Positions 8,643 to 64,000 of a stretch of DNA of 64,000 bases are shown piece after piece. The stretch is from the sequence record MW388002.1. The stretch is one strand, 5' to 3'. This DNA comes from Acinetobacter phage Mokit. The position numbers and the translations under genes are program-made. Each line of letters begins with the position of its first letter. Position 1 is the first letter of the stretch. The notes beneath the pieces are model-generated. The model saw only the letters and a program-made list of their open reading frames with translations, was not told the DNA's origin and searched no databases.

Positions 8643-11600
8643 TTAGTAAATTATTCCAATATCGATTTGATTCTTTGTGATAATCCAACCGTGTCTAGAT
8701 TCTTGAATTTCGACATTAGGATAATCTTGAATCATTTTAGCAATTGTCAATAATTCACAGGCATATTTTAATCCATTAGCTTCAGGATTTTTCCAATCTA
8801 TTCCTTTGGCAACAGCTTCCTGTAATTCATCCAATACCCAATATCCACACCAAATAAATGATGAGTCTCTTGAATCAAGTGGATGAATGTGTCTAATACA
8901 ATCGCCTTCGATTGGAGGACTCGCAACTGAAATCTCTACACTAAGTTCAATAACTCTATCCAAATAATCAGGATGCTTAAATGTTACTGTAACACTAGAT
9001 GTAGATTTTCCTGGAGCAGTAGGAGTAACTGATACCGCCTGTGTAGTAGCTCCATTGTTCCAAAGATATGTTATCGAAGTCCCATCAACAGATGTCATCG
9101 CATCAACTGTAGCTTCATAAGATTCACCCAAAGTAATAGATTCTTTATCAACTGATATATTAGCTACTCCTTGTACAACAATCTTCTCAACTTTGATTTT
9201 GACACCATTTGATGAAACAATCGCTTCATCATAATCTGGATGAGTTGCAGTAACCACACAATTTAGTGTATAGTCGCCGGCCAAATGCTCAGATCTAGTA
9301 ACAGTTTTTGAAGTTTCTCCTGTTGACCATTTATATGCAAATGTTGATCCATTTGGAGCATTTTTAACATCGACACTAACACTGAAGGATTCATCCTGCT
9401 TTACTGTTGTTTTAGTTGCACTAGCTTCAGCAGTAATACTCATTACCATTTTATTGGCAGTCATTTCAACTTCTTTTGTCAGAACTACATTATCAGCACC
9501 CTCTGCTACAGTGGTAGAGGTTACTTTAATTTTATGTTTTCCTGCTACAGTTGGAGTATAATCAAGGTAGTTTGTTGTCGAAGGATTTTTCGTTCCATCA
9601 ACTTCCCACGCATATGTTGTGCTAGAATCTGCGGGTGCACCTTCTACTAAAGCTGTAAATCTTTGTGAGTCCTTTATTGTTACTACTGCGTCAGTAGGTA
9701 ACAGACTTAATGTAATGGCCATTTCTCGTTTTTCCGTTGTTACGTTAAATTTTTCATCTAATATTAAATCTCCATCATAATCAGGATGGCTAAGTCGAGC
9801 TTTAGTAGAAATCTCATGTTGTCCTGGATTTACCGCTGCCACTGTGAATGAGTCCTTAATATCAGAGAGTGATATAAATTTATCATCGATAAACCATGAC
9901 ACAGAATCAACAGATAATTGATCAAAATTTTCTACTAATTCTTTTCCTACTATTGAAGCGCTAACAATTAGATTTTCACCCCATTTCAGTAATGTCTTAT
10001 TTGGAACTAAATCTAAACTAAGATTAGGCCAAGCCTTCCTATTAATATCAATTGTAGATTCATGTGAACTCACAGGAGTATCATTAAATCCATCTTTCTT
10101 AACTATAGCGGATGCCGATATTGTATAGTTAAAATTTTCGGCTTTCATTGTTATCTCAGGAGATGTCACAATTTTGCCATTTATTTTCCAAGTGATATTC
10201 TCAGTAGTTGCTCCATCAGGTAAATTAGTCCACTTAGGTTTAATCGTGAAAGTCTGATCCAAAGTTATATTAGTTGGAACAGTTTCAAAATCCAAAATGG
10301 GTGTAGGATCAATAGGATTGTCTAGCACCTCTAAAATAATATCAGATTCTGCTACAAGAGGAACGGCATCCACATACATATCATCAGTAAATGTATGTCT
10401 AATTTTACCGACTAATTGTTTAGATTCATTCGGTAATGTATAAGAGAATTTTCCATTTACTGCTTCAACTACAGGATTGCCTTGGAAGTCAATAAGTTCA
10501 TATTTACCCTTTTTAGATAAAGTTTCAATCTCTTGGGCATACTCTGCTGGGGTATCTTTTATGTAATCCAATAAATTAATAACATCAAATTCAATAAGAT
10601 TACCTTTGGCACCAGAGAAGTAGAAATTGTTTGAAGCTGTTAAGAATTTACCATCTACTCTAAAAATACCTTTAGCATTCCACTCAGGTTGTTTTCCAAT
10701 AGTGACAGTTTTAGAAATCTCAAAATCTTGTTGTTCAAAATATGGATTCTCTTTTGATTTACCTGATACTTTAATCTCTACCGTTTTACCGCATAAAGAA
10801 GGTTCGATATATTCCATTGAATAAAAATTAGGAGTAGTTGGAATTCCTGAGAAAACTTCTACACCGTCTATAGTTACTTTTGCGACATCCTTATCTGAAA
10901 TTTCAAATGGATAATTTTTATAATCAGGAACACCAGAATATGTACCGTTTACACCAATGCTTTCACCTGATCCGTGACCCCAATACATTTTTTCAAAGTA
11001 ATATAGGCCAACGATTTCAGCTGAATGTGGCGCAGCAATCATCTTAACAAATTCAATTGGAACTTCAGGTGATGTTACAGTAACACCTTCATAGTCATCA
11101 GATTTAACGGATACTATGCACTTGACGTTATATGTGCCAACTTCTTTCCTAGTAAAAATTAGATCCTTTTCACTTCCGGCGTGGTCACCATTAACAGACC
11201 AATCATAAGATATAGATACTCCCGCAGGTGCTCCAGTTACATTGGCAGTAAAATTAGCAGATGAAGTGATCTCTGCTGAAGGAGAACTTGAATTTACAGT
11301 TACTGAAATTCCATCCATTGTACTTTTTACACTGTTTACTACAGTTTCATCAGTTATAACAATAGTTTCGGAACCTTTGGTAACAGTAACTTCAACTTTA
11401 AATGTATCAGTTCCCACTTTCTCATATGGATATGTTACAGGTTTATCTTCAGAAAATAACACTCCATTTTTATACCATTTTTGAGTGGCAGTATAAGGTA
11501 ATGCAACACCAGTAACAGTATAATCTAATACGGCAGATTGACCTATACTAATAGTAACATTACGTGGAGAAATAGATACTTTTCCTCGCAAAGGTTCATA

Positions 11601-15152: not shown

Positions 15153-15320
15153 TTATTTTAGCTTTTTATCAGTGTATTTGCAACAAGGTACAAAATGAGA
15201 AATGTAGACACCTTGATCATGACAAGGACAACCACATTTCTTAATAATCTCATTCTGCTGTGCTGTTAGCACAGGTTTCCCAATTTTAAAAATCTTTCCA
15301 ATCAACTTTACTAGCTTCAT
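15153..15320 (-). CDS. Small Cys-rich protein of 55 aa, missing from the ORF track.
   Basis: MKLVKLIGKIFKIGKPVLTAQQNEIIKKCGCPCHDQGVYISHFVPCCKYTDKKLK. Its start is coupled by ATGA to the upstream ORF. Confidence 0.35.
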   Translation of the reverse strand: MKLVKLIGKIFKIGKPVLTAQQNEIIKKCGCPCHDQGVYISHFVPCCKYTDKKLK

Positions 15321-15484
15321 AGCAATAACTCAGTCTCTAGCAAAATGTCATCATTAGATTCCAAAACAGGTAAATCTTGAATGTGCTGCAAGCAGTGTCC
15401 AGGATGGACAGGTCCTTGATCAGTTTCAACTACCAGTGCTTCATCAATCGGCATCTTACATACCGAACAAATACGTGTTTCCAT
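15317..15484 (-). CDS. Small Cys/His-rich protein of 55 aa, missing from the ORF track.
   Basis: METRICSVCKMPIDEALVVETDQGPVHPGHCLQHIQDLPVLESNDDILLETELLL. Confidence 0.35.
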   Translation of the reverse strand: METRICSVCKMPIDEALVVETDQGPVHPGHCLQHIQDLPVLESNDDILLETELLL

Positions 15485-15549
15485 TATTATTCTCCTATAT
15501 CGTATATATATTTATAGACTCTATACATCTAAATCATCAGAAACTCTAT

Positions 15550-15601
15550 CTTCTCCGACCAAATAGATAAATTTAGAGCGGTGAACCGTAGAACCATTAT
15601 A
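15550..15601. repeat. Copy A of a roughly 52-bp dispersed intergenic repeat.
   Basis: cttctccgaccaaatagataaatttagagcggtgaaccgtagaaccattata. Identical except for one inserted g to 47561..47613. Confidence 0.8.
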
Positions 15602-15665
15602 CCATACAAATTTTGTAAAGCATTTTATGCTTATAAATAAGGCGATTTATATGATCAAATTTTAA

Positions 15666-16064
15666 TCACTCTGATCTATCACCGCTTAATTGTATTTTAA
15701 TTTGTTCTAATGTGTCAGGGTTATCTAGAATGCTAAATGTAACCGTAACAATTATTGCGTTATTGTCATATTGTGCTTGCACTGCAACATTAAGTCTAAC
15801 TATACGAGGTTCGTAGGTTCTAATTGCAGATGTTATGCTTTTTTCTACTGTGTTGACAGTCAGTGGTGACATATTTTCAAAAAGCGCGTTGCCAATGTCG
15901 CATCCAAATTCTGGATCAAATGGGCGAGAGCCTTTAGGTGTGGTAATAATTCCTAATAAGGAGTTTTTAACTGCTCTTGCTCCTACAGACGCTGCGACAT
16001 CCATATTCCATGCACGAGTAAGTTCAGGAGAAATATCCGTGTAGAGGTCATTAATATTTTGCAT
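15666..16064 (-). CDS. 25: Baseplate wedge subunit.
   Basis: 132 aa, the same as T4 gp25, with a gp25/lysozyme-like fold signature. Confidence 0.85.
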   Translation of the reverse strand: MQNINDLYTDISPELTRAWNMDVAASVGARAVKNSLLGIITTPKGSRPFDPEFGCDIGNALFENMSPLTVNTVEKSITSAIRTYEPRIVRLNVAVQAQYDNNAIIVTVTFSILDNPDTLEQIKIQLSGDRSE

Positions 16065-46162: not shown

Positions 46163-46393
46163 TTAAACGTTATATTTTCCTTCAAGTTCTTGGCGACGTT
46201 TGCAATTGTTAATTGGGCCGCCGTATGGCACATCTTTAAAATGTTCATACATGTCTTCCATTACAGGAAAATCTCGAGACATCCATTTAGTGTAGTCATT
46301 GAAATAACCACGCCAAATCCATTTATCTCGAATTTCGTCCTCCAGGACCCACCAAGCAAGTCCTGATAATAATCGCTTAATAAACTTTTTCAT
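46163..46393 (-). CDS. Hypothetical protein.
   Basis: ORF only. Confidence 0.35.
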   Translation of the reverse strand: MKKFIKRLLSGLAWWVLEDEIRDKWIWRGYFNDYTKWMSRDFPVMEDMYEHFKDVPYGGPINNCKRRQELEGKYNV

Positions 46394-46400
46394 TTGCGCC

Positions 46401-47471
46401 TCAAATGCAGTTGAGATCTTTAAGAAGTTTGGTTAACTTGTTTTTAACCATATATGAATATGTTTTGCCGCGTGGAGCAGGTGTGTATGATTTATATGCA
46501 TCAATAATTGATTCACGAATATCATCACGAATATAATCAAAGTCAATTAATACACGATTGCGTTTGAAACGATGCATCCATAAGTCTGCGATTTTTGTTG
46601 TCATAACTGTAGTGTCGGTATATAATTCAGGAGATTGATCAACATCAATGCCTTGTAATTTTAGCAGTTTATGGCAATTTTCAACACCTACTTTTTTGTT
46701 TGATGTTTTTTTGGAAATTTCAGCCATAAATGCATTATACACTTCATCATCCGATTTGCCAACAAGAGATTTAACAAAATCCGCAGATGTTGATGGGGTG
46801 CGTTCAGTGTCTTGGTCATATGTTAACCAGAAGTCGCCACGAACTTTAATCGATGCAACACAGTCTTTGCGATCGCCTTTTAAAACTTTAGTTAGACAAT
46901 CTTCTTGTGGCGAGCCGGTCTTGACTTTTACAAATTTTTTCTGGACTGGTGAATATTGATCTAAATCTTCAATTTTATGAAGTTGTGTAAAGTCACCATC
47001 AGATGAAATAACACGGACCTTATAGCCATGAAGTGATAAATATTTAGATAGCACTGCAATACAATCGTCTGCTTCACAATGGCGGACATCGATAATAATC
47101 CAAGGCATATTATCTTTTAATTCTTGAATAACAATTCCAAGAGCTTCAAAATAGCCTTCCCAATCAAATGAATCAGATTCTTGTGCTTCAGCACGTGCAA
47201 TCGCACGATTGCGTTTATAATAATCTTCTTCTTGTCGTCGCCAATATCCATAACGTGCATTATCAATTGTGATAATGACTTTTTCATAGCCATCAGCTTT
47301 AAATTTTAATGCATTATGTTTAATTGTTGAGAGTACAAGTTGACGAACAATATCGGTAGTGAATTTCATACCAGGTTCATGTGTAACTGCAACAGTTGCT
47401 AAAGCGATTTGTGACAAATCGATAAGTAGTGCACCAGGCTTTTCTGGTTCAAAAAAGTGGTCTAAACTCAT
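46401..47471 (-). CDS. rnh: RNase H (FEN-1 family 5'-3' exonuclease). Start taken at the ATG giving MSLDHFF rather than the longer upstream non-ATG start in the ORF track.
   Basis: Colinear with T4 RNase H (IDLSQIALATV...SSDGDFTQLHK...KGD.KD.VASVKVR). Confidence 0.85.
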   Translation of the reverse strand: MSLDHFFEPEKPGALLIDLSQIALATVAVTHEPGMKFTTDIVRQLVLSTIKHNALKFKADGYEKVIITIDNARYGYWRRQEEDYYKRNRAIARAEAQESDSFDWEGYFEALGIVIQELKDNMPWIIIDVRHCEADDCIAVLSKYLSLHGYKVRVISSDGDFTQLHKIEDLDQYSPVQKKFVKVKTGSPQEDCLTKVLKGDRKDCVASIKVRGDFWLTYDQDTERTPSTSADFVKSLVGKSDDEVYNAFMAEISKKTSNKKVGVENCHKLLKLQGIDVDQSPELYTDTTVMTTKIADLWMHRFKRNRVLIDFDYIRDDIRESIIDAYKSYTPAPRGKTYSYMVKNKLTKLLKDLNCI

Positions 47472-47560
47472 ACTATTATCCTTCTTAAATGATAGAAATA
47501 TTGTAAACAAAATATAATGAAGCAATCTGGATTATTCAGAAACACTGCGCAGCAGCTATA

Positions 47561-47613
47561 CTTCTCCGACCAAATAGATAAATTTAGAGCGGTGAACCGG
47601 TAGAACCATTATA
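47561..47613. repeat. Copy B of the roughly 52-bp dispersed repeat.
   Basis: cttctccgaccaaatagataaatttagagcggtgaaccggtagaaccattata, lying between the divergent rnh and gp34 genes. Confidence 0.8.
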
Positions 47614-47728
47614 ACATCAAAAAATACAGTTGTACACTATGCTTTACACAAATATGATTAATAAATAATCATAAGAACCAATACTCGGCTTTTAATAAAT
47701 ATATGATAAGATAATCAAAGGAAATCGC

Positions 47729-50700
47729 ATGTCTGAAGTAAAAACAAGTTTCCGTGCGTCATACGGGTTGGACGCAGCTGGTGAAAAAGTAATCAATGTA
47801 GCAAAGGCTGACAAAACTGTCATGTCTGATGGTGTAAACGTTGAATACCTCATCCAAGAAAACACAACCCAACAATATGACCCTTCTCGTGCATATGAGA
47901 AAGGATTTATTGTAGAATTTAACGGCCGTCTTTGGATGGCCGAACAGAATATTGCTAAACCTGCAGGAACATTCTTTGAAGGTTACTGGAAGCCATTGCG
48001 TACCGACCCTAAATGGTACCCATTTGATTCTGGCAAGTATCAATTAAAGGTTGGTGATTATATTTCTGTTGATACACGTGCAGGTTTAGACGTAGAATTA
48101 ACTTTACCAACATCCCCAGCACCACAAGAAGGCGACACTATTTCCATTAAAGATATTGGCGGCTTGACTGGGTATACTTCTGTTATTGTTATTGCCCCTG
48201 TTGAATCTATTGTTGATAAAGGCGCAAGCATCCCACAAAAACGTATGACTATTCCATTTTCTGAATGGACATTTGTTTATACGAAGAAGCAATGGTCATT
48301 ATTCGACGGTGACGAGGCACCTGTGGCTCGCACAGTTGTACCAGGGGGACCAATTCGTGTTCAATCAGGTGAAACAATTATTCGTAATTATGATCGCCTT
48401 GCGCCTATTGTGTTGACATTCCCAAAATTCGCTAATAATGGCGATATTATCCACTTTGTAGGCATGAATCAAAATTCGGTACCATATTACCACCTAGAAT
48501 TGAACACATTTGATTCTAATACAAGTATAATGTCTCCTGGCGTACACAAAGAGATATTCTATCGTTCACTAAGTGGCTATTTTATTTACAATAGCTCATC
48601 GTCTACTTGGGTACTTTTTGACACAGATACAGTAGATCGACTACGAACTGTTAGTACTGATACTGATTTGTTCCCTAATGAAACTGTCGCAGTAGTCGGT
48701 AAAGATAATGTAACTGCGCAAACAATTAAATTGACTCTGCCTGATAATGTGCAACCTGGTGACCAAATCACTATTGCATTGAATTATATGCGAAAGGCTC
48801 AAACAGTTAATATCGTCCCTAAAGGGTCTGATATGATTTTGACTAATAAAAATCTTACACAGTTCCCTAAGCGTTCGAGTTATCCACCTGATGGCAATTG
48901 GGTCAATACCAACATTTTGTCATATAATGGAAACAGCGATTATCCGCCTGTGATTAAGTTTGCATACATTGATATGGGGCCTATTAAACAGTGGTTAATG
49001 GTCGACTGTATTCCTGCATTAGAACGCGTAGACCCTTCATCAGATGCAACACGTGGAAGATTAGGTGTCATTGCATTAGCTACCCAAGCTCAAGCGAATT
49101 TAGATAAATCTGCTATAACCGAGGCGGCTAAAGAAGTAGCTATTACGCCTGAAACTTTATCAAATAGAACTGCTACCGAGGCTCGCCAAGGTATAGCTAA
49201 AATTTCAACTAGGGCGCAGAACCAACTTAATACTGATGACGCTAATTATAACGATTTTGACATAGTTACTCCTCTCAAGTTGAATCAAAAACAAGCCACT
49301 GAAACTATGCGTGGTCTTGCTGAAATTGCCACTCAAGCTGAAACGAATAGCAACACCGACGACACAAGAATTATTACATCTAAGAAATTGGATGGACGTA
49401 GAGCTAGAACAGATCTTGCAGGCGTAGCTAAACTCGTTGCTGCTGGTGGTGTGGCACCGGTTAAGAATGGTACAAATACTCGAGATACTGTTGGTACTGG
49501 CATCTATGACCATACAGATTATGTTAACATTGTAACGCCAAAAACATTAAGAGAATTTTATTCTACCGAAATGGCTTTAGGTACAGTGTACTTAGCAAAT
49601 TCTGCTGAAGTTATTTCTGGCGCTTCATCAGCAGCGAAGTACCCATTAGCTGTTACTCCAGAAACATTGCACACAAAAACTGCTACAGACGGTAGAATCG
49701 GTTTTACTCAGGTTGCGAATCAAACTGAAGTTAATGCCGGCACCGATTATTTTAAATATGTTACGCCAAAAACATTAAATGATCGTAAAGCTACAGAAGC
49801 TTTGACCGGTATTGCTAAACTTGCAACTCAAGCCGAGTTTAATGCTGGCACTGCAGGACTAATCTCTGGCCCAGATAAAATTAAAGCATATTTGTCTACA
49901 CCTTCACGTACTGCGGTAGTTGCCGCATCTGGTTTGACACAGGCCGGCAACCTTTGGACTACAACAACATTTGATATTGTTGCACCTACTGAAACACAAC
50001 GTGGTACAACACGATTAGCTACTCAAACTGAAGTTAATGCCGGCACTGATGACATCACTGTTGTTACTCCTAAAAAGTTACATGCTAAAAAGGCTACAAC
50101 TGCTGCAGAAGGTATTATTAGAATTGCTAATACTGCAGAGACTATAGCTGGAACTTCTGGCACTACCGCTGTATGTCCAGTAAACTTAAAGCAAGTAATA
50201 CAAGTCGAGACGTCTTGGGAGGCTTCAGCTTCTTTGCGTGGTCCGGTAAAAATCTCTAGCGGTTCGATTACATTTGTAGGAAATGATACTGTTGGATCAA
50301 CAGCAGATATTGAAACTTATGCTAAGTCCGGATATGCGATTTCACCATATGAGTTGAATAAAACTCTTGTGAATTACATGCCATTGAAAGCTAAGGCTGT
50401 AGATTCCGATAAATTAGATGGAATTGACTCTACTCAGTTCATCCGTAGAGATATTAATCAGACTGTTGAAGGAAGTTTAACATTCACTAGTCCTACATTG
50501 TTTAATGATCGTGTTGACATACGTGAAATGTTAGAAGTGGGCAAAACTTCAGGTGAATCACTTAACACAGACAATGGCAAGCTACGTATGGTTTCTGGTG
50601 CTGTAGCTCCTCGAGCTTGGGCATTTGCGATACATGACGGTAATGTTAATGGTGTTGGCTCATCTACACTTAAATTTGGCTATAAGTATCTTAGCGCTCA

Positions 50701-51607
50701 ACCAGGTCCTATTGACATTGTTGCATATGAAATTCATCATTCCGGTGCAATTAAATTCAACAATACTTTAAATGTAGTTGGTGCGACGACAATAAACAAC
50801 ACACTAAATGTTTCAGGTATCGTAAGTACAGACTCTGTCGGATTCCGAATTGCTGGATTTGATGCGTTGACGGCAGTCTCAGGACAAACTAAAGTAGGTA
50901 CTACTACACGTGGTCTAGACTTGATTGCAACTGATGCTGCATTTATCCGAGCTTTGGATTCAGGCACAGTATATACTGTAATGACAACAAAAAATCGTGC
51001 AGGGATTTTAGATCCATTATATGTCAAGAAGTCTGGTGACACTATGACTGGTAGATTAAACGTCAGCCAGCCTATTACTGCTACAATTCCTCAGTCTTTG
51101 GCTACGCCTAATGCTGTACCTAATTCTAACAACTTTGGTACATGGACAATCGATATTACTGATCCTGCAATTTATAATACTATGCGCCCGTATCTTGTAG
51201 GTGTCTATGCCAAAAATGAAGAAACTGGTGCTACACTACCATGGTATGATAAGTATGATGAATTCAACGGACCTGGTACGTTGTCTCAATTTGGATCATC
51301 TGCGTCTAATGGCTCAGGTACATATCAAATTTGGGCGCCACGCCCGCCAGCAGATAAAGCAAATCTTCCTGGACATATTGCAGGAACTATGTGGTCCCGT
51401 CAATGGAATCCTGCAACAAATCATTGGGATGGCTGGGGTAGAATGTTTACAAACAATCATCCGCCGTTACCACAAGATATTGGTGCTATGAGTAACAATG
51501 GTTCGGTCTTTGATTCTATGCGCATCAGAGATTGGATACAAATTGGCAATTTAAGAATCTATGCGAATCCGGAGACAAAAACTGTTCGCTTTGATTGGAT
51601 AGAATAA
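47729..51607 (+). CDS. 34: Long tail fibre proximal subunit.
   Basis: 1292 aa against T4 gp34 at 1289 aa. The N-terminus is colinear with T4 gp34, and internal tail-fibre repeats (ATE..G.AK.ATQ.E...GTD....VTP..L) are present. Confidence 0.9.
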   Translation: MSEVKTSFRASYGLDAAGEKVINVAKADKTVMSDGVNVEYLIQENTTQQYDPSRAYEKGFIVEFNGRLWMAEQNIAKPAGTFFEGYWKPLRTDPKWYPFDSGKYQLKVGDYISVDTRAGLDVELTLPTSPAPQEGDTISIKDIGGLTGYTSVIVIAPVESIVDKGASIPQKRMTIPFSEWTFVYTKKQWSLFDGDEAPVARTVVPGGPIRVQSGETIIRNYDRLAPIVLTFPKFANNGDIIHFVGMNQNSVPYYHLELNTFDSNTSIMSPGVHKEIFYRSLSGYFIYNSSSSTWVLFDTDTVDRLRTVSTDTDLFPNETVAVVGKDNVTAQTIKLTLPDNVQPGDQITIALNYMRKAQTVNIVPKGSDMILTNKNLTQFPKRSSYPPDGNWVNTNILSYNGNSDYPPVIKFAYIDMGPIKQWLMVDCIPALERVDPSSDATRGRLGVIALATQAQANLDKSAITEAAKEVAITPETLSNRTATEARQGIAKISTRAQNQLNTDDANYNDFDIVTPLKLNQKQATETMRGLAEIATQAETNSNTDDTRIITSKKLDGRRARTDLAGVAKLVAAGGVAPVKNGTNTRDTVGTGIYDHTDYVNIVTPKTLREFYSTEMALGTVYLANSAEVISGASSAAKYPLAVTPETLHTKTATDGRIGFTQVANQTEVNAGTDYFKYVTPKTLNDRKATEALTGIAKLATQAEFNAGTAGLISGPDKIKAYLSTPSRTAVVAASGLTQAGNLWTTTTFDIVAPTETQRGTTRLATQTEVNAGTDDITVVTPKKLHAKKATTAAEGIIRIANTAETIAGTSGTTAVCPVNLKQVIQVETSWEASASLRGPVKISSGSITFVGNDTVGSTADIETYAKSGYAISPYELNKTLVNYMPLKAKAVDSDKLDGIDSTQFIRRDINQTVEGSLTFTSPTLFNDRVDIREMLEVGKTSGESLNTDNGKLRMVSGAVAPRAWAFAIHDGNVNGVGSSTLKFGYKYLSAQPGPIDIVAYEIHHSGAIKFNNTLNVVGATTINNTLNVSGIVSTDSVGFRIAGFDALTAVSGQTKVGTTTRGLDLIATDAAFIRALDSGTVYTVMTTKNRAGILDPLYVKKSGDTMTGRLNVSQPITATIPQSLATPNAVPNSNNFGTWTIDITDPAIYNTMRPYLVGVYAKNEETGATLPWYDKYDEFNGPGTLSQFGSSASNGSGTYQIWAPRPPADKANLPGHIAGTMWSRQWNPATNHWDGWGRMFTNNHPPLPQDIGAMSNNGSVFDSMRIRDWIQIGNLRIYANPETKTVRFDWIE

Positions 51608-58753: not shown

Positions 58754-59029
58754 TTAGAACTTAGCAGTGTTAGTGTACATTGCTAATTTTTTGTAGATCG
58801 GTGCATGTCCAATATTAAATTCTGCGATAAGTTGTTCTTTTTGACGATTCGTGATATCTTGTGTCAAATTAAAAAGGTTGCCAGCGGTAACCTTTTTACC
58901 GTTAATAGTAATGCCAAGTTCATTCAAAAATGCAATGAATAAGTTTTTATCTTCAATAATGTCATCGTGCCCAAATTTGATAAGAATTGATACAACAGCA
59001 GCGATCTCAGCGAGAGTTTCAAATACCAT
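58754..59029 (-). CDS. asiA: Anti-sigma-70 protein AsiA.
   Basis: 91 aa. Similar to T4 AsiA (ILIKF...DI.E....FIAFLNE.G.T..G.K). Confidence 0.7.
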   Translation of the reverse strand: MVFETLAEIAAVVSILIKFGHDDIIEDKNLFIAFLNELGITINGKKVTAGNLFNLTQDITNRQKEQLIAEFNIGHAPIYKKLAMYTNTAKF

Positions 59030-59040
59030 GATAGAGTTCC

Positions 59041-59658
59041 TTAAGAGTTAAAATAGTTTACAATAGCGTCAATTAAGATTTCGATATTTTCGATTGTACG
59101 TGGCATATCGAAGTATGTTTGTGCAGGTGTAGAGCGGTATGACATACCGATTGATGCAAATAAGTCAATAGTTTCTTGCGATGGCTTACGAATACAAACG
59201 CGAATTTCCGGTTTATTTTTGATTTCAATACATCCAATGCCTTTGCATCGTTTTTCAAAGAATAAGAAAATATTACTACGACTAACACTGACATCTTTTA
59301 TTTCAATTTTGCCTTTAATATACTCTACTGCATGATCTCGGCACGATTCCATGTCTTCAGTGATTTCACGTTTGTTTGAGCCTGTGCGTTTGACAAGTAA
59401 GTCCGGGCGTTCGGCTTCAACAAATAACTTCATTGCATTTTCAACAAGTTCATCACCAAAAATAGAAATGATGTACATCTCGTTAGATTCATCGACAAGA
59501 TTGAATTCAATCAATTCATCCAGGTGTTCACCTATTTCATCTTTAGAATGATATTGAGTACCATATAGTTTCAATAAATAATTTAAGGCTTGATCACCTG
59601 GTGTTTTGTCAAGATTCAATTGTTTGGCCGCTTGAGCCATATAAAACAATTTATCCAT
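59041..59658 (-). CDS. motA: Middle transcription activator MotA.
   Basis: 205 aa against T4 at 211 aa, adjacent to asiA. The C-terminal domain resembles MotA. Confidence 0.65.
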   Translation of the reverse strand: MDKLFYMAQAAKQLNLDKTPGDQALNYLLKLYGTQYHSKDEIGEHLDELIEFNLVDESNEMYIISIFGDELVENAMKLFVEAERPDLLVKRTGSNKREITEDMESCRDHAVEYIKGKIEIKDVSVSRSNIFLFFEKRCKGIGCIEIKNKPEIRVCIRKPSQETIDLFASIGMSYRSTPAQTYFDMPRTIENIEILIDAIVNYFNS

Positions 59659-63931: not shown

Positions 63932-64000
63932 GAGACTTTCCTTTTAAGAAGATAAAACCATTATAAACAAATTTTGTGAAGCAGTAAAACAGCTTATTTA

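Follow-up and report, generated by a model that had tools for sequence, protein, structure and literature searches.

A 52-nt repeat in the genome of an Acinetobacter phage is real, non-random and part of a conserved five-copy promoter–leader module, and we regard the five copies as candidate origins of replication. The repeat was picked out by an initial annotation of a 64,000-nt stretch of DNA (the window), position 1 of which corresponds to position 104020 of the record of Acinetobacter phage Melin (MW388003.1; Straboviridae, Twarogvirinae, Hadassahvirus; T4-like) that was used for all whole-genome counts. The 52-mer lies at 15550–15601 exactly as first quoted, and its second copy at 47561–47613 differs by one extra G only ('aaccGgtag'). 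Such a match had been judged unlikely to arise by chance, and none of 100 dinucleotide shuffles of the window matched the 52-mer at ≤3 mismatches. The two copies, reported as about 32 kb apart and in the same orientation, share their first 39 nt as an exact direct repeat 32,011 nt apart. Each is preceded, as also described, by 'tcagaaac' (15537–15544 and 47536–47543), which belongs to the same module and is separated from the core of copy B by a 16-nt GC-rich insertion. Consistent with the original description, both copies are intergenic: copy A falls between the gp25 stop (15666) and the start (15484) of a gene for a 55-aa DUF2685/UvsY.-2 homologue, and copy B falls between the start of rnh (47471) and that of gp34 (47729). 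Relatives carry the repeat as well, with 50 phage records having it at about five places each. Two aspects of the first description required revision. The 52-mer is a genuine repeat, but the conserved unit spans about 100 bp; and a search of the rest of the genome, suggested at the outset, revealed a five-copy family of which three members lie outside the window and had been missed.

The organization of the module becomes apparent on the minus strand, which also encodes the flanking early and middle genes. On this strand, each copy opens with the extended −10 element TGnTATAAT and continues as GGTTCTAC(C)GGTTCACCGCTCTAAATTTATCTATTTGGTCGGAGAAG, and the 52-mer comprises the −10 box and the first ~45 bases, predicted to be transcribed, of a promoter–leader module of ~100 bp. 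Its elements follow in the order MotA-type box (replaced in copy B by a −35-like hexamer), TGnTATAAT, pyrimidine-rich start, short AT-rich stretch and purine tract. The earlier suggestion of a middle or early promoter thus holds in part, as an extended −10 is present in every copy, a MotA box in copy A and a −35-like element in copy B; however, the informative strand is the minus strand and not the one that had been read, and most of the 52-mer corresponds to predicted leader. The features of copies A and B and of the associated genes are as follows, in window coordinates.

15550–15601, minus strand: copy A, TATAAT plus the 46-nt leader GGTTCTACGGTTCACCGCTCTAAATTTATCTATTTGGTCGGAGAAG
15596–15604, minus strand: extended −10 of copy A, TGGTATAAT, with the predicted start at the A at 15589
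15616–15622, minus strand: MotA-box-like TGCTTTA of copy A, 14 nt upstream of TATAAT
15544–15557, minus strand: purine tract CGGAGAAGATAGAG, the best-conserved block across the compared genera
15523–15543, minus strand: type-I extension TTTCTGATGATTTAGATGTAT, common to copies A and C and including 'tcagaaac'
15509–15516, minus strand: T4-type late-promoter-like sequence TATAAATA, between the copy A module and the downstream ORF
15317–15484, minus strand: gene for the 55-aa DUF2685 protein, homologue of T4 UvsY.-2, the first gene downstream of copy A
15666–16064, minus strand: gp25 baseplate wedge gene, ending just upstream of copy A
47561–47613, minus strand: copy B, TATAAT plus a 47-nt leader
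47608–47616, minus strand: extended −10 of copy B, TGTTATAAT, with the predicted start at the A at 47601
47631–47636, minus strand: −35-like TGTACA of copy B, 17 nt upstream of the −10
47545–47556, minus strand: GC palindrome GCTGCTGCGCAG, inserted after the copy B core
47536–47543, minus strand: GTTTCTGA, after the GC palindrome of copy B
47500–47524, minus strand: rnh-proximal MotA-type promoter-like site TGCTTCA-N12-TACAAT, between copy B and the rnh start codon
46401–47471, minus strand: rnh, homologue of T4 RNase H, the gene downstream of copy B
47729–51607, plus strand: gp34 long tail fibre gene, from which copy B would fire away
59041–59658, minus strand: MotA homologue (Pfam MotCF 5.9e-12; 34% identity to T4 MotA; tblastn 9e-21)
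58754–59029, minus strand: AsiA homologue (Pfam AsiA 8.8e-19; 45% identity to T4 AsiA; tblastn 7e-21)

The upstream element varies among copies. By sequence, copies A, D and E have TGCTTTA 14 nt ahead of TGnTATAAT, copy C has TGCTATC, and no MotA box is found at −30 in copy B. In copy A, a small hairpin (AAGCAT-AAA-ATGCTT) directly after the gp25 stop has TGCTTTA as its 3′ arm; a hairpin also carries the MotA box in Melin copy E and in copies D and E of phage Kimel (GTAAAGCAC-GC-GTGCTTTAC), a feature that does not extend to all copies. A further TGCTTTA lies on the plus strand at 47640–47646, facing gp34 and adjoining the −35-like hexamer of copy B, and Kimel and Melin copy E have two MotA boxes arranged as an inverted repeat (GTAAAGCA...TGCTTTAC). 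MotA, AsiA, RNase H and UvsW are all encoded by the phage, and the MotA homologue is the presumed activator of MotA-box promoters. Further downstream of the core, a possible AUG-UAU-CUN mini-ORF recurs. The block RGATGTATCTG, likewise recurrent and located around +60 to +75 (window 15523–15533, for example), includes an imperfect palindrome (AGAT-GT-ATCT) and can also be read as the M-Y-L start of the mini-ORF, which would span 2–16 codons and use synonymous Leu codons (CTG, CTA, TTG and CTT) among the copies.

Exactly five copies are present in the whole Melin genome, at record positions 14.3 kb (D), 48.4 kb (E), 79.9 kb (C), 119.6 kb (A) and 151.6 kb (B). An nhmmer profile recovered the five Melin copies at E ≤1e-22 and those of phage AB1I1M-1 at E ≤1e-15, with the next match at E >1e-3. 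Successive gaps around the 168-kb genome measure 34.1, 31.5, 39.7, 32.0 and 30.6 kb, an evenness with a probability of about 5e-5 under a uniform null of random points and of 4.5e-5 for draws of five from among the 50 TGnTATAAT sites of the genome. Copies A, B and E are directed at genes on the minus strand, A at the uvsY.-2 homologue, B at rnh and E at an ORF in an insert that splits the DNA polymerase gene. Copies C (gp3/gp2) and D (srd-like gene/macro-domain gene) are antisense to their neighbours, have no downstream ORF and reach bidirectional intrinsic terminators after ~115–140 nt. The transcription strand switches at copies C, A and B and at neither D nor E, and GC and AT skew track only the direction of transcription, without inflecting at D or E. 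Within each lineage, copy A resembles copy C and copy D resembles copy E; D and E contain two tandem GC hairpins, which in AB1I1M-1 have another sequence in the same arrangement. The insert in the DNA polymerase gene consists of 5–9 small ORFs that divide the gene in two (Melin record 46198–50655; also in phages ZZ1 and AB1I1M-1), and copy E is located inside it in Melin and AB1I1M-1, and in Kimel as judged by its neighbours.

The 50 phage records that carry the element all belong to Hadassahvirus or Lazarusvirus. Kimel (Lazarusvirus) has five copies with the same neighbours and orientation as in Melin, and in AB1I1M-1, which represents a third lineage, a copy occupies each of the five slots, always in the same orientation as in Melin. 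AB1I1M-1 shares only TGtTATAATGGTTCTACC with Melin; the remainder of its module reads CCCCTACCCTTCCAATATTATATTTACTGCCGGAAAAGAATAGG and is near-identical among the copies of that genome, which have TGCTGT(A/C) as their box. More diverged copies occupy slots A, B, C and D of ZZ1 (Zedzedvirus) in the same orientations, with no copy at the polymerase-insert slot E or elsewhere in 1–50 kb. In Acj9 (Acajnonavirus), for which one slot was checked, the 352-bp gp3/gp2 spacer holds two tandem modules (85469–85859) antisense to the flanking genes. The same architecture, from a box near −30 and an extended −10 through a pyrimidine-rich start and short AT-rich stretch to the purine tract, holds in all these lineages; the tract takes the form CGGAGAAGATAGAG, CGGAAAAGAATAGG, CGGGAGAGATATAGG or GGGAGAAGATATA and is followed by a block around GATGTATCTG, and the promoter itself is the only part that is invariant across all genera. 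The leader is unlike between lineages yet near-identical within a genome, and therefore undergoes concerted evolution. A 1-nt deletion of C at +3 is confined to copy A in Melin, whereas the closely related AbTZA1 has it in A, B and C, a pattern indicating that gene conversion among the copies is active. Exact scans of IMG/VR returned only AbTZA1 and Kimel in addition to chance or generic promoter matches, and no description of the element was found in the literature searched.

The same records contain several features of independent interest. In partial AB1I1 and AB2I assemblies (PP798956–PP799042; ends of OQ627712.1), the module lies within ~50–160 nt of contig ends; the circular junction of AB1I1M-1 has a duplicated 82–111 bp, and the KARL-1 record has a module at positions 27–103. 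The repeats probably break short-read assemblies of these phage genomes. Window positions 63951–64000 extend ~50 bases beyond the length of the linear Melin record (167969), and the last 36 bases of the window equal the first 36 of that record, reflecting either wrap-around or a short terminal duplication of the record. A tRNA is annotated as tRNA-Pyl at Melin record 77062–77136 and likewise in ZZ1 and Acj9, with the ZZ1 record noting the anticodon CTA and a possible suppressor function; a small RF-1-domain ORF is annotated in this region of the Melin and Acj9 records.

Five nearly evenly spaced copies in the same slots across several genera suggest candidate replication origins. The T4 origins oriF and oriG have been described as a MotA promoter with a downstream unwinding element, from which the transcript forms an R-loop that primes replication. 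We tentatively propose, with something less than even confidence, that the five modules are origin-type promoters whose transcripts would prime replication in the same manner. Host RNA polymerase, aided by MotA and AsiA, would start a short transcript at the module; the transcript would stay hybridized to its template, forming an R-loop in which the purine-rich part of the RNA may act as an anchor; and the R-loop RNA would be trimmed and then serve as primer for leading-strand synthesis. The analysis establishes the anatomy of the module, its copy number and spacing, the conservation of slot and orientation, and its concerted evolution; promoter activity, R-loop formation and replication priming are inferences. 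The leader RNA is predicted to be unstructured, with minimum free energy (MFE) z-scores that average about −0.4, and it would therefore be free to invade duplex DNA.

Comparison with T4 reveals both correspondence and divergence. In the T4 record, oriF is annotated on the minus strand in the gene 25/uvsY interval, with the uvsY transcript as its primer RNA, oriG lies inside gene 34 with an RNA antisense to that gene, oriE lies inside gene 5 and is also antisense, and oriA is placed at the beginning of gene 56. Copy A, which likewise follows gene 25, corresponds to oriF in slot and strand. Copy B adjoins gene 34 and would fire in the same direction as the oriG RNA, away from gene 34, but is ~0.15 kb upstream of the gene, whereas T4 oriG is 2.1 kb inside it. 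Copies C and D are antisense and non-coding, as are the oriG and oriE RNAs, and copies D, E and C lie 9, 21 and 2–3 kb from the gene contexts of T4 oriA, oriC and oriE, respectively. Both genomes have five sites whose map positions correspond only roughly and of which three coincide with strand switches, and the T4 division of oriE, oriF and oriG versus oriA and oriC follows the same three-plus-two pattern by strand switch (Kreuzer and Brister, PMC3016281). At the level of sequence, TGCTTCA-N13-TATAAT is present in both oriF and oriG of T4, the former also having a TG extension, as compared with a 14-nt spacer here. These two origins, the best studied in T4, also share ATAGAG(n)AACAA 34–39 nt downstream of the −10 (NC_000866, 115339 and 152984), as compared with 48 nt here. 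ATAGAG is similar to the purine tract of the module, although it also occurs in a T4 Shine–Dalgarno region, may thus be a generic purine tract and is a lead only. T4 has uvsY and uvsY.-1 between gene 25 and uvsY.-2, whereas the Melin slot (window 15485–15665) holds the module only, and a tblastn search of the whole Melin genome with T4 UvsY yielded no homologue. The module resembles T4 middle promoters (for example, PuvsY) in having TGCTT(T/C)A near −30 together with TAnnnT, a TG extension as in several of them, and genes for the activator and co-activator; unlike the module, T4 middle promoters as a class have no conserved transcribed leader. The module also resembles ColE1 RNA II and the mitochondrial LSP/CSB system in that a promoter precedes, at a set distance, a purine- or G-rich RNA segment that could stabilize an RNA–DNA hybrid serving as a primer. 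The ColE1 and mitochondrial RNAs are structured or based on G runs, whereas the leader here is predicted to be unstructured and its tract is mixed A/G in most lineages.

Duplex stability matches the T4 model unevenly. A T4 origin needs an AT-rich unwinding element of ~50 bp right after the promoter. The nearest-neighbour stability of positions +12 to +52 in the modules lies at the 22nd–27th percentile and is thus greater than the genome median, as is that of +1 to +40; copy A is very unstable at +50 to +110 (97th–99.7th percentile), whereas the 50 nt that follow +40 in D and E are among the most stable in the genome. The first 40 transcribed base pairs would therefore not melt readily, and copies D and E then enter very stable GC hairpins, so that a T4-style AT-rich unwinding element does not recur regularly among the modules. 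Moreover, T4 R-loop formation is reported to be independent of specific sequence; the T4 model thus does not predict near-identity of the copies, which would call for gene conversion or a specific factor. T4 origins lack a common sequence motif and need an unwinding element, whereas the five candidate sites here share a module of ~100 bp.

Alternatively, the modules may be ordinary prereplicative promoters that serve transcription only and are kept alike by frequent gene conversion acting on short repeats of a phage that recombines heavily, making them a middle-promoter counterpart of the promoter-early stem-loop (PeSL) cassettes of T4-type phages (Arbiol 2010, PMC2839356; Comeau 2014, PMC4122927). 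We consider this unlikely. PeSLs are sigma-70 early promoters with a −35 that number ~50 per genome and occur in hyperplastic regions upstream of ORFans. As with the module, they are repeated intergenic promoter units conserved over ~100 bp. PeSLs combine promoter and stem-loop, and in the module a hairpin overlaps the upstream promoter element in some copies; both PeSL cassettes and the five-copy module are likely substrates for recombination or gene conversion, which in the module is visible in the +3 indel. Copies A, B and E do precede genes. In addition, ~35 Melin early promoters form a separate class, GTTTAC-N17-TGnTATAAT-AGTCATATCAAATCA (also written GTTTAC...TGnTATAAT...TATCAAATCA), that is the counterpart of PeSLs and has its own conserved start region, suggesting that conserved initial transcribed sequences are common and favouring a purely transcriptional role. 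Examples of this class lie on the minus strand at record positions 8997, 9374, 18377, 26167 and 138049 (window 34030), several with a hairpin over the −35. By contrast, the module has a MotA-type box and five evenly spaced copies in fixed core slots, as compared with ~50 clustered PeSLs, and two of its copies are without a gene. A consensus scan found no −35 in copy A, and inspection by eye indicates that a TGCT-type box at about −30 replaces the −35 in four of the five copies, only copy B having a 4/6 match. Transcription alone would also leave the even spacing (P about 5e-5) unexplained, and it sits poorly with C and D, two copies that drive no gene and oppose their neighbours, yet retain their slot and orientation across genera. 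Finally, rnh has its own proximal promoter-like site, and copy B would therefore not be needed for rnh expression.

A functional role for the 45-nt leader as RNA appears somewhat less likely still. Under this explanation, copies C and D would produce stand-alone small RNAs of ~115–140 nt and copies A, B and E would provide mRNAs with a common 5′ leader; the leader would serve as a seed, bind a factor of phage or host, or pair as antisense with late transcripts that run through C and D. Copies C and D are indeed promoter–leader–terminator units without an ORF, the leader is near-identical within a genome, and, from the orientations, transcripts of neighbouring genes across C and D would contain the exact complement of the leader. 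A small RNA, one of the candidates of the initial annotation, is accordingly possible for these two terminator-bounded copies, but no Rfam match or conserved fold accompanies it. No gathering-score match to Rfam occurs in the whole window, and permissive thresholds (E ≤10) around copies A and D yielded only chance or terminator matches. RNAalifold predicted 0 consensus pairs for 10 distinct leaders, two helices built by hand reached 69% and 87% pairing with one compensatory event, and folding energy was no better than that of shuffled sequence; a structured RNA was rejected on the basis of the 0 RNAalifold pairs, the weak hand-built helices and an MFE z-score of about 0. The leader is not conserved between genera, which would be unusual for a seed acting on a conserved target, and an RNA function leaves the even spacing unexplained. 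Two further candidates were set aside: a boxA/nut-like sequence CGCUCUAA is restricted to the Hadassah and Lazarus lineages and absent in AB1I1M-1, ZZ1 and Acj9, and peptide coding by the core was rejected because of the frameshift introduced by the indel and the many stops on the opposite strand.

The conserved block could also be a DNA site for a sequence-specific phage protein, such as a nicking or clamp-loading site feeding late transcription, a domain boundary or a recombination hotspot, with site and protein co-evolving within each lineage. Such a site would account for a sequence that is lineage-specific and uniform within a genome and for even spacing on a genome scale, and short palindromic stretches are available, namely ACCGGT, AGAT-GT-ATCT and, in copies D and E, the GC palindromes. 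We nevertheless regard this as improbable: analysis of ten neighbouring ORFs with Pfam returned a Macro domain only and thus no candidate protein, the promoter alone is invariant across genera, and a 1-nt indel within ACCGGT is tolerated. A GATC/Dam site at −45 to −55 was discarded: GATC shows no over-representation, ZZ1 and most copies of AB1I1M-1 lack it, and the similarity is explained by orthologous flanks. The footprint or target of a mobile element (homing endonuclease or MITE), likewise put forward in the initial annotation, is suggested by a multi-copy intergenic repeat with one copy in the insert that splits the DNA polymerase gene, but is highly improbable given the same slots and orientations wherever checked across Twarogvirinae genera, no terminal inverted repeats or target duplications seen in alignments, no associated ORF and no endonuclease gene adjoining any Melin copy.

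If the modules are origin-type promoters, as we tentatively favour, a further and more speculative step, which we think unlikely, is that Twarogvirinae use a sequence-defined replicator of five evenly spaced modules whose leader co-evolves in each lineage with an origin-specific protein or RNA factor. They would then be the first T4-type phage group with origins that can be read from sequence, a departure from T4, in which origins share no motif. Five near-identical candidate sites together with natural variants across genera make the question of what defines a T4-type origin directly testable. Phages including Melin, Maestro, the AB-Navy phages, AbTZA1 and KARL-1 have been used or proposed for therapy of A. 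baumannii, and replication and regulatory landmarks would aid their engineering. Should the modules prove to be promoters only, they would still exemplify the concerted evolution of regulatory cassettes at fixed genomic slots.
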